Source of the DNA: Escherichia coli
Lineage (GTDB): Bacteria; Pseudomonadota; Gammaproteobacteria; Enterobacterales; Enterobacteriaceae
DNA: 64,000 bases
Assembly: GCF_017348835.2 (NCBI RefSeq)
Contig: NZ_CP072317.1
Direction: 5' to 3' (one strand)
Positions 9,001 through 12,000 of this stretch are shown in pieces (position 1 is the stretch's first letter; each line of letters begins with the position of its first letter). The position numbers are program-made.

Positions 9001-12000
9001 GACCAGCCCAGCGTTCTCCCATGCTGCCCAGCACATAGTAATTATCCTTGTCGGTGTAATAGTTTCCGGCACTGCCTGCCGATTTAACAACGCTGAAACT
9101 CAACATCAGAAATCATCTCCCGGCTCAACATCCTCCCCGCGCTCCCGGTGCACATTAATGTTCACCTCTTCACGACGCTGCATATGCTGCTGGATGTCCG
9201 GATGATTTTCCTGTTGCCATGCCTCATAAGCGGCCATATCCACCACTTCACCGGATTCACTGATCCCGGGTGGCAGTTGCTGTTCCATCTCTTCTTCCGG
9301 TTTCATTTTCAGCTCCTGCTCGATCCCCCCTGCCGGAACACTCACACCTGCATCTGACTTCTTATCATTGATGACAGAAGACACTGGCTGTTGTGGCTGT
9401 TGTGGCTGTTGTGGCTGTTGTGGCTGTTGTGGCTGTTGTGGCTGTTGTGGCTGTTGTGGCTGTTGTGGCTGTTGTGGCTGTTGTGGCTGTTGTGGCTGTT
9501 GTGGCTGTTCAGCCTGAGTCACATCTTCTCCGGAGGCAACCTCCGGTTCAAAGAGGCTGGCCATCTGACGACCTTCTGCTTCCCTTGCGGCAAGTACGGC
9601 ACTCAGACGGTTCTCCATTTCCGGGTTGATGTCACGCGGAATAAACTCCGGAGCGACCTTCGGTCGTGCCTGATATTTCAGAGAGAGTTTGACTGCCGGA
9701 TACGGTCCGGGCAGAGTGACATAGCAGGTCAGATCCGGCAGAGACTGAATGTCGGAATAACTGACCAGCGTCTGACGCTCCATATCCTTACCGGTCGATA
9801 CCCCGTCACGTACCGGGTCAGCACCGTAGGAATACTGCTCGCTGGCTTTCAGGTGCTCTTTCTCACCAATCTCACCGGCAGCGAACTCTGCAATCTTATG
9901 GCTCGGGGAACGGAAAAAAGCACGGGTGTTCATGACGTCAAACAGCGTGGCCGCCGCTTTCTCACCGTAGATATCTTCCAGCTGGGCATAGGACTGGATA
10001 CCAAACACATAACAGCCACCGAACTTACGGGCTTCCGGCAGGATCTCCACCAGATCCGGCAGTTTGTGTAACGTGGGTAACTCATCACAGAAAAACCACA
10101 CACGACGGTTACGGTTTTCTCCCATTGCCAGCAGACCACGAATGGCAATGGACAGCCACATGGAGATCACAGGCTTCAGGGAGGCATGGGTGTCGGCGTT
10201 CGACGAAATAAACAGCCAGCCGTTTTTCTGATCTTCCCGGACACCACGCATCCAGTCACGGATGGTGAAGGGATCACCGTTATGCTCAATCCCCTGCAGG
10301 TAACGGATGGCTTTCACGTAGTTGGTCAGCACAGCACGGATGGAAATCGCCGTTTTCTCAATTTTCTCTTCCACCAGGTTGGCCGCCGGTGAATTACGCA
10401 GGAAGGTACGCAGTTTTTCAATTTTGATGGAAAGCAGTGTGTCCACCAGTTTGCTGTAGCTGCGGTTGGGGTCATTACGCATCAGGTACGCCGCTTCCGC
10501 AAAAATGGTACGTCCTGAACCCTGCCAGAACGGGTCCTCTTTTGTACCCATAGGGATCAGCGTGTTCGCGGTATTATCAAAATCCGGCTGTGTCAGGCAC
10601 TCCTTCCACAAATCCCATGCGGCACAGCGGGCATCCAGCGGATTCAGGATTTTATCGATGGAGGGATCATAGTAACTTTTAACAAATTCCCCTGAACGGT
10701 CATAAATCACCACCATATCACCGCGCTGACGGGCATAGTTGGCCAGACGACGGATAACCTCCGACTTACCGGCCCCGACCGTGCCGTGCAGACAGAAGTT
10801 CTGGATTTCGGAATCCCGGATAATCGGCAGGTCGCCAATCCGGATATCGGAGTCCTTGCCGTCTTTTTTCAGCATCCGGGCAACGTCTTTCGGATTGTCT
10901 GTCAGCTGACGACCACCTGTGACTTCATTTTCGCTCTGTTGTTTACCCTGACGCCCCAGAATCCAGGAGACAACAAAGAAGGTGATCAGGCAAATAACCA
11001 GGGCCACGACAGACGCCAGAACGAATGCAGACCATAGCTGCTCTCCGCACCAGATCATATATTTATCATGCAGTACCTGGGCAGCGTTCATCCGGAAGGT
11101 TTTGCCGTAATACTGGATCTCATAGACCGGCTGGGATTTTATTAAATCCCGCATGCCTTCCAGTGACGTACACCACCAGTAAATACAGCCGTTGATAAAC
11201 GTCTGCCAGCTTATTTTTACCCATAAGACCAGACCAATGAGGATCCAGAAAAAAATAAACAGGCAGTAAAGCATGATATTGGCGATCTGGCTGAACATGC
11301 GGATACGCATGGACGCAATCTGACCGCCCTGGGTCATATCCTTTGCGTTAAAACTCATGATGAAACTCCGGGAAAATCTGGAACAGGGCAGAAAAGGATG
11401 ATGTGGGGTTAATTCACAGAAACAGACCAGGTGTACCCTGTATGCCGGTGGTGATGCCCGCCTGCAGTCCTGCCGGAAGAGACCTTCTCTGTAACAATGT
11501 CAGTCAGGCGCAATACTTCAGACCAGTCACTCCCATGCGGAAACTGGATCTGAATAAAAAGGCGTACCCGTTCACGGTGATCCAGAACTGTGTCCGGTTC
11601 ATAAAAACGGCCACTGTCAGGAGAAACACAGGACGTTTTATTGATGAGATCATACTTATCGGCAGGAGACTGCGATGAAATCGCCCAGGTGATATTCTCC
11701 GCCTGGTGGCCATCAATACGACTGCTCCCCGGCGTCCATGCAATTTCCTGCGCACTCGCCACGATGATCTCCCTGGAAACTTCAGCCAGCTTTCTGGGTG
11801 TACAGAATACCGGTGCCAGCACACACAGGGACAACAAATTACAGCTGACCGCCTCCGGTTTAAGCAAATTGCTCCCGGATTTTTCAGGAAAAGATATTTT
11901 TGTCAGTATTTCAGTTAATTCCTTATGCCTGAGAGAATTAATAAAGTACATGATAAGCATCATGAGAAACAATATAACAATAAGCCCTCCGATAACCACT

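Follow-up and report, generated by a model that had tools for sequence, protein, structure and literature searches.

F-like plasmids rank among the main carriers of ESBL and carbapenemase genes, and TraD forms the gate by which their DNA exits the cell. A variable QQP repeat in traD has already been described in the literature. Lang et al. (2011, Mol Microbiol 82:1071) reported that F-like TraD proteins carry a QQP motif of variable length, which reads QPQQP in F and extends over 23 residues in R1 (PMC3245843, Fig. 8). These authors speculated that variation in TraD could explain plasmid-specific behaviour, stated that the idea of a copy-number effect was 'under investigation', and proposed phage resistance as a driver of the diversification of T4CPs (PMC3245843). 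In Salmonella, a 9-bp VNTR in traD of the virulence plasmid pSLT was sized by PCR at 5-19 repeats in 220 isolates, with ranges of repeat number that were specific to genotypes, and the repeat has served there as a marker in epidemiology (Hiley et al., 2019, PLoS One; PMC6459517). A study of S. Enteritidis in 2020 found 2-14 copies of the traD repeat in six near-identical plasmids (PMC7311658), and a deletion of 81 nt (9 x 9) in traD was described by Luo et al. in 2012 (PMC3391293). We searched the literature for tests of an effect of QQP copy number on conjugation, mobilisation or phage sensitivity, and found no such paper.

We have analysed a stretch of 64,000 nucleotides from an Escherichia coli contig (NZ_CP072317.1), referred to in its entirety as the window, which carries a traD gene with a repeat of this kind. 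The relevant features of the window are as follows, with the basis for each in brackets.

3836..9106, minus strand: traI, relaxase/helicase, a 1756-aa ORF immediately downstream of traD (ORF and annotation of relatives)
9106..11358, minus strand: traD, type IV coupling protein of 750 aa, an R100 allele with 13 QQP units as against 9 (ORF, Pfam and identity to the R100 flanks)
9640..10878, minus strand: folded cytoplasmic ATPase core of TraD, residues 161-573, homologous to TrwB (phmmer against the PDB)
9331..9549, minus strand: hypervariable low-complexity linker, residues 604-676, containing the QQP array (alignment of 36 homologs and AF2)
9385..9509, minus strand: perfect 9-bp tandem array (TRF and unit-by-unit listing)
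9109..9222, minus strand: last 38 residues of TraD (713-750), ending EPGDDF, the equivalent of the published TraM-binding tail (sequence and mapping from the literature)
9109..9132, minus strand: last 8 residues of TraD (sequence)
35932..36315, minus strand: traM, relaxosome protein and docking partner of the TraD tail, not part of the repeat (exact match to the annotated traM of NZ_CP098194.1, and ORF)

The 750-aa ORF showed the organisation of an F-like TraD, with a TraD_N domain at residues 32-128 (Pfam, E=4e-34), a TrwB-type nucleotide-binding/all-alpha domain at residues 172-561 (TrwB_AAD_bind, E=6.6e-117), and the Walker A motif GTVGAGKS in the translated core. A phmmer search of the PDB aligned residues 161-573 to TrwB (1e9r/1gl6, E=2e-47). 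Residues 574-750, beyond this TrwB-homologous core, form the C-terminal extension of about 150-200 aa that is listed as a feature of F-like TraD, along with its acidic tail, glycine and terminal aromatic residue (reviewed in PMC7555446). The position of the gene agreed with this assignment, since traI abuts it, relatives are annotated traT-traD-traI, and traM is present on the same plasmid; the matching gene is labelled traD in thousands of plasmid records. Pfam matches to 'Amelogenin' and 'TFIIA' at residues 609-693 were below the curated cut-offs (24.5 against 27, and 17.3 against 36.2, respectively) and were discarded, as they reflect only the Q/P-rich composition of this segment.

Comparison with the traD gene of R100 (NR1) showed that the sequences flanking the repeat were identical at 1856/1857 and 279/279 bases, that is, a single difference in 2136. 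The repeat unit CAACAGCCA is common to both genes, with 9 units in the 738-aa protein of R100 and 13 in the 750-aa protein of the window. The remainder of the window matched IncFII CTX-M plasmids of ~70 kb at 99.9-100%. By sequence comparison, the plasmid in the window is of the R100-type IncFII group and carries resistance genes. The blaCTX-M gene (57369..58244, plus strand) is one base away from the annotated CTX-M-15 gene of NZ_CP098194.1, a difference that results in Gly242Asp in the precursor, and we take it to be CTX-M-3-like. It is found within an IS26-bounded resistance module, with IS26 at 56243..56947 and a TEM fragment at 59026..59763.

TRF reported a single array in the traD region, at 9385..9509, with a score of 250, a period of 9, 13.9 copies, 100% matches and no indels. 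An independent scan for perfect periodic runs identified the same 125 bases with period 9. At the other periods from 3 to 30, matched runs reached a maximum of only 7-11 bases across the 64 kb, with the exception of an array at 44858..44914, and a chance origin of the traD array can therefore be excluded. On the minus (coding) strand, 9385..9501 consists of 13 uninterrupted units of CAACAGCCA, each encoding Gln-Gln-Pro. These are preceded by GAACAGCCA, encoding Glu-Gln-Pro (EQP), of which 8 bases constitute the additional 0.9 copy, or partial 14th unit. The initial annotation had described about 13 perfect copies of a 9-bp unit encoding QQP, and both the TRF result and the listing of individual units bear this out, as the 13 units are identical. 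It had also placed the array at 9386-9509, where the end is correct and the start is off by one base. The (QQP)13 tract corresponds to residues 620-658 of TraD, and the stretch amounts to 41 residues if the leading QP is included. The tract had been located just before the C-terminus of TraD; it does lie in the C-terminal extension, but 'just before' is loose wording for a tract that is followed by 92 residues.

Two ORFs on the plus strand run across the array, at 9391..10071 ('LWLLWL...') and 9393..9629 ('VAVVAV...'). We rejected both, since they arise mechanically when the repeat is read on the other strand, and the region sits within a well-supported gene on the minus strand. The plus-strand unit GCTGTTGTGG is similar to the Chi sequence GCTGGTGG, but direct reading of the array revealed no Chi site.

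Two other tandem repeats were seen in the leading region of the plasmid. The array at 44858..44914 is perfect and consists of 9.5 copies of the hexanucleotide CAGTAG (TRF score 114), and is intergenic, between ssb (43712..44239, minus strand) and a gene for a SAM-dependent methyltransferase (45094..45657, minus strand). There are 6 copies in the 99.9%-identical plasmid NZ_CP098194.1 and 9 in the window, indicating that this array is also a VNTR. Its place beside ssb resembles that of STTR10pl, a 6-bp MLVA locus of Salmonella next to ssbB on pSLT (Hiley et al., 2019; PMC6459517), a likeness of position only. The other is an 18-bp tandem duplication at 39355..39405 (2.3-3 copies, TRF score 56-82), near hok/psiB.

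We then compared the traD array across related plasmids. Exact QQP unit counts were obtained from 16 relatives, and these were 1, 1, 3, 5, 6, 7, 8, 10, 10, 13, 15, 16, 18, 23, 27 and 28, one of the two single-unit sequences being from an F' plasmid of E. coli K-12. The traD reading frame was intact in 15 of the 16. The remaining relative (CP082329.1, 65148-65715) was the only one with a length that was not a multiple of 9, and it contained four stops in the traD frame. The 156-kb record has only 52 annotated features and no annotation of traD, and it looks more like an assembly rich in errors than a case of a genuine pseudogene.

A wider sample was obtained with a query of 524 bp, comprising the array and 200 bp of flanking sequence on each side, which matched 3,973 plasmid records as well as 3,207 records from complete E. 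coli genomes, of which 2,799 out of 5,426 had a match. Rows were taken evenly down each ranking, irrespective of kinship, providing 57 rows from plasmids and 58 from complete E. coli genomes. The difference in span from the query was divisible by 9 in 56/57 and 57/58 rows, respectively (113/115 in total), and 20 distinct lengths were seen in the plasmids and 17 in the complete-genome records. Conversion of a BLAST span to a copy number requires an offset specific to the allele, since the F-type allele has 9 extra upstream bases (encoding DVP), and we therefore give exact unit counts only for sequences that were counted directly and for the subset with at least 98% identity. In both samples the length seen most often was a span of 425, which is the single-unit F type (11/57 and 13/58 rows), and this prevalence would fit a repeat that becomes unstable only after several copies exist. 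Taken together, copy number varies between isolates, as the initial annotation had anticipated, from 1 to 28 units among the 16 relatives and in 9-bp steps in 113 of the 115 sampled rows; the repeat number is not invariant across related plasmids, the one outcome that had been named as evidence against the proposal.

Variation was also evident on backbones that are otherwise indistinguishable. A query of 6 kb retrieved 59 plasmids with 100.0% identical flanks, in which 10, 16, 17, 18, 19, 21, 22 or 23 units were present and all length differences (59/59) were multiples of 9; ranking by this query favours arrays longer than its own, so these unit counts do not represent a frequency distribution. 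Changes in unit number on identical flanks imply that the array evolves far more quickly than point substitutions build up. Where plasmids came from a single study, their counts mostly agreed (17/17, 19/19 and 16/16 units), while one hospital series was split into 16, 18 and 10 units. This agreement suggests that the differences in length are biological, and argues against assembly noise.

Two alleles of the unit were found. The R100-type allele, to which the window belongs, has the unit CAACAGCCA, ending in CCA, and the F-type allele and pSLT have CAACAGCCG, ending in CCG. The traD gene of F itself carries QPQQP, with a single QQP, and that of pSLT from strain LT2 carries 10.8 perfect copies of AACAGCCGC (10 units), with QQP in a matching context (AEQPQQP...). 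In the relatives that were examined and in pSLT, each array was pure for the unit of its own allele, as is expected if slippage and expansion take place repeatedly within an array. In NZ_CP032165.1 (31281-32030), 27 QQP units at positions 250..501 of the locus began with 25 CCA units and closed with 2 CCG units. The upstream flank was 100% identical to the R100/window allele, and the downstream flank was 100% identical to the F allele. The mixed units and differing flanks point to a crossover between two traD alleles inside the array, in this single case.

To place the tract within the protein, we examined an alignment comprising 36 homologs of TraD at 59-98% identity. Protein clusters at 90% identity collapse variants in copy number and their representatives mostly have short tracts, and clusters were therefore used only for distant homologs and partial entries. 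Conservation was high through residue 575, collapsed at residues 601-675, and recovered in a C-terminal module with the pattern GG.EQEL...LPPG...GE.VD..Y..W, continuing through a further block of 10 letters to G..F. The segment between the conserved F603 and G677 was the least conserved part of the alignment, ranged from 24 to 95 aa in length and was rich in A/P/T/S/Q. No QQP was found in this segment in the Klebsiella-type and more distant TraD proteins of the alignment. The tract is outside the folded core, as the Pfam domain ends at residue 561 and homology to TrwB at residue 573. An AF2 model of the whole TraD, built with the 36-sequence alignment, assigned a pLDDT of ~28-34 and no secondary structure to residues 606-693, and predicted helices at 708-730; the model was poor overall (mean pLDDT 57.6), and the low pLDDT of the linker counts only weakly as evidence of disorder. 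The QQP tract is thus part of a generic, length-tolerant and probably disordered linker.

We consider it highly probable that the array is a VNTR which is prone to slippage, always remains in frame, and resides in a passive flexible tether of TraD whose length is broadly tolerated. In this arrangement the (Gln-Gln-Pro)n linker would join the membrane-anchored hexameric ATPase core, which ends at about residue 573, to the conserved acidic tail, and the tail would dock onto TraM tetramers bound at oriT. Strand slippage during replication would add or remove whole 9-bp units, as the units are identical, and occasional unequal or inter-allelic recombination may also lead to their gain or loss. As a 9-bp unit amounts to three whole codons, neither the frame nor the tail that binds TraM would be disrupted by any such change, and with the linker serving solely as a flexible tether, many different lengths would be tolerated, such that alleles of 1-28 units coexist. 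From the comparisons above we infer the slippage mechanism, the role as a tether and the near-neutrality of its length. The initial annotation had described the tract as the region that contacts TraM, and on that reading the tract would itself be the contacting surface, so that copy number directly alters the binding interface. This we regard as very improbable. The tract does fall in the C-terminal extension, which is needed as a whole for F-specific transfer. However, the tetramerisation domain of TraM binds Asp710-Phe717 of F TraD, the last 8 residues (PDB 3D8A), and the last 38 residues of R1 TraD are both necessary and sufficient for contact with TraM (reviewed in PMC7555446). When the terminal 8 residues of F TraD alone were exchanged for those of pED208, specificity switched (PMC3159463), and the legend to Fig. 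8 of Lang et al. has the QQP region drawn apart from the TraM interaction domain (PMC3245843). The tract of the window ends 92 residues upstream of the C-terminus, and 54 residues before the 38-residue tail segment (713-750), in a linker that is not conserved, and many TraD proteins among the 36 homologs retain the conserved tail without a QQP tract. With the mapped contact so far C-terminal to the repeat, the earlier wording was inaccurate, and we infer that the tract is the tether and the TraM-binding tail the hook.

A passive tether is to be weighed against the view that the length of the linker is under selection, in the manner of an adaptive tuning or contingency locus, through the reach and avidity of the six TraD tails towards TraM-oriT complexes or through the entry of R17-type RNA phages. 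Rapid changes in length may then let a plasmid adjust its transfer efficiency, substrate specificity or phage susceptibility. Allele diversity is very high on identical backbones, heterogeneity of the TraD C-terminus is suspected to be tied to plasmid-specific R17 infection and activation of transfer, in which case length would not be neutral, and phage resistance has been suggested to drive T4CP diversification (Lang et al., 2011; PMC3245843). The docking of each tail to TraM is weak and dependent on multivalency, and an avidity model has been proposed in which a number of flexible tails of TraD engage more than one TraM tetramer, so that the length of the tether could matter (PMC3159463). 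Repeat ranges in pSLT are specific to genotypes (Hiley et al., 2019; PMC6459517), though these are also expected from descent with stepwise mutation. Moreover, the repeat is unable to switch the gene on or off, as its unit is a multiple of 3; the variation seen (multiples of 9 in 113/115 and 59/59 cases, and open frames in 15/16 relatives) is not that of a phase-variable ON/OFF locus, and a phase-variation switch was excluded since changes in unit number never shift the frame. F, which conjugates efficiently, has a single QQP, and distant TraD proteins substitute an unrelated A/P/T-rich segment of 24-95 aa, which suggests tolerance rather than a tuned optimum. Selection on linker length therefore appears unlikely. 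Quite unlikely, in our view, is the further proposal that the array is a contingency-like locus generating tether-length variants that are kept by selection, and in addition a hotspot for crossovers that reshuffle TraD cores and TraM-specific tails; selection could here come from RNA phages that depend on TraD for entry, from rivalry over docking of the relaxosome, or from mobilisable plasmids that exploit the coupling protein as parasites. That the variation is an artefact of sequencing or assembly, with a true number that is constant, is hardly credible. Short-read assemblies do fail at the array, with 4,849 partial TraD sequences ending at the first unit, and the one relative with frameshifts and a length that is not a multiple of 9 (CP082329.1) is apparently a low-quality assembly. 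Against this, complete genomes and plasmids vary, by exact multiples of 9 in 113/115 rows, plasmids from one study agree with each other, and differences exist already among classical plasmids sequenced in the Sanger era, F, R100 and pSLT having 1, 9 and 10 units. Sizing by PCR, which is independent of assembly, also gave 5-19 repeats in the 220 Salmonella isolates (PMC6459517).

In practical terms, the QQP repeat of traD is a fast-evolving marker that can separate plasmids which are otherwise identical, although its value is modest. The partial sequences mentioned above form a protein cluster (P0017, 596 aa, 4,849 members annotated as 'partial' TraD) corresponding to about 9510..11300 of the window on the minus strand, whose last 13 residues come immediately before the first repeat unit. 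Partial TraD proteins that end at the array imply that draft contigs from short reads break at the repeat, and this supports the recommendation, made in the initial annotation, that arrays be sized with long reads. If it were true that copy number alters transfer efficiency or susceptibility to phage, the array would be a simple natural dial on the spread of plasmids. It is, however, an ordinary feature of low interest, and most likely a slippage-prone repeat in a length-tolerant tether.

A low-complexity, proline-rich extended spacer is familiar from TonB, in which (Glu-Pro)n/(Lys-Pro)n connects the membrane-anchored part of the protein to a distal binding domain. TonB is unrelated to TraD in protein and in sequence, so that the resemblance to the QQP tract is an analogy of function only, and we know of no hypervariable VNTR at the DNA level in the TonB spacer. 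The traD VNTR of the Salmonella virulence plasmid is far closer, as the gene, the position, the period and the encoded QQP are all as in the window, where the 9-bp tandem unit lies at the site homologous to PSLT104 of pSLT (Hiley et al., 2019; PMC6459517). The two differ in the wobble base of the third codon of the unit (CAACAGCCG in Salmonella) and in the C-terminal extension, which has diverged such that the match between the traD DNA sequences, at 83% identity, breaks off short of the array; protein identity is 80-83% for the Salmonella TraD clusters. The window shares with the region described by Lang et al. (2011) the protein, the motif, the position of the QQP repeats upstream of and apart from the TraM interaction domain, and the heterogeneity in length among relatives, and differs from it only in copy number, with 13 QQP. 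Our additions to the published work are small, and comprise a census of 1-28 units that includes identical backbones, the purity of the arrays, the two unit alleles, a recombinant within the array, and the breaks of draft assemblies at the repeat.
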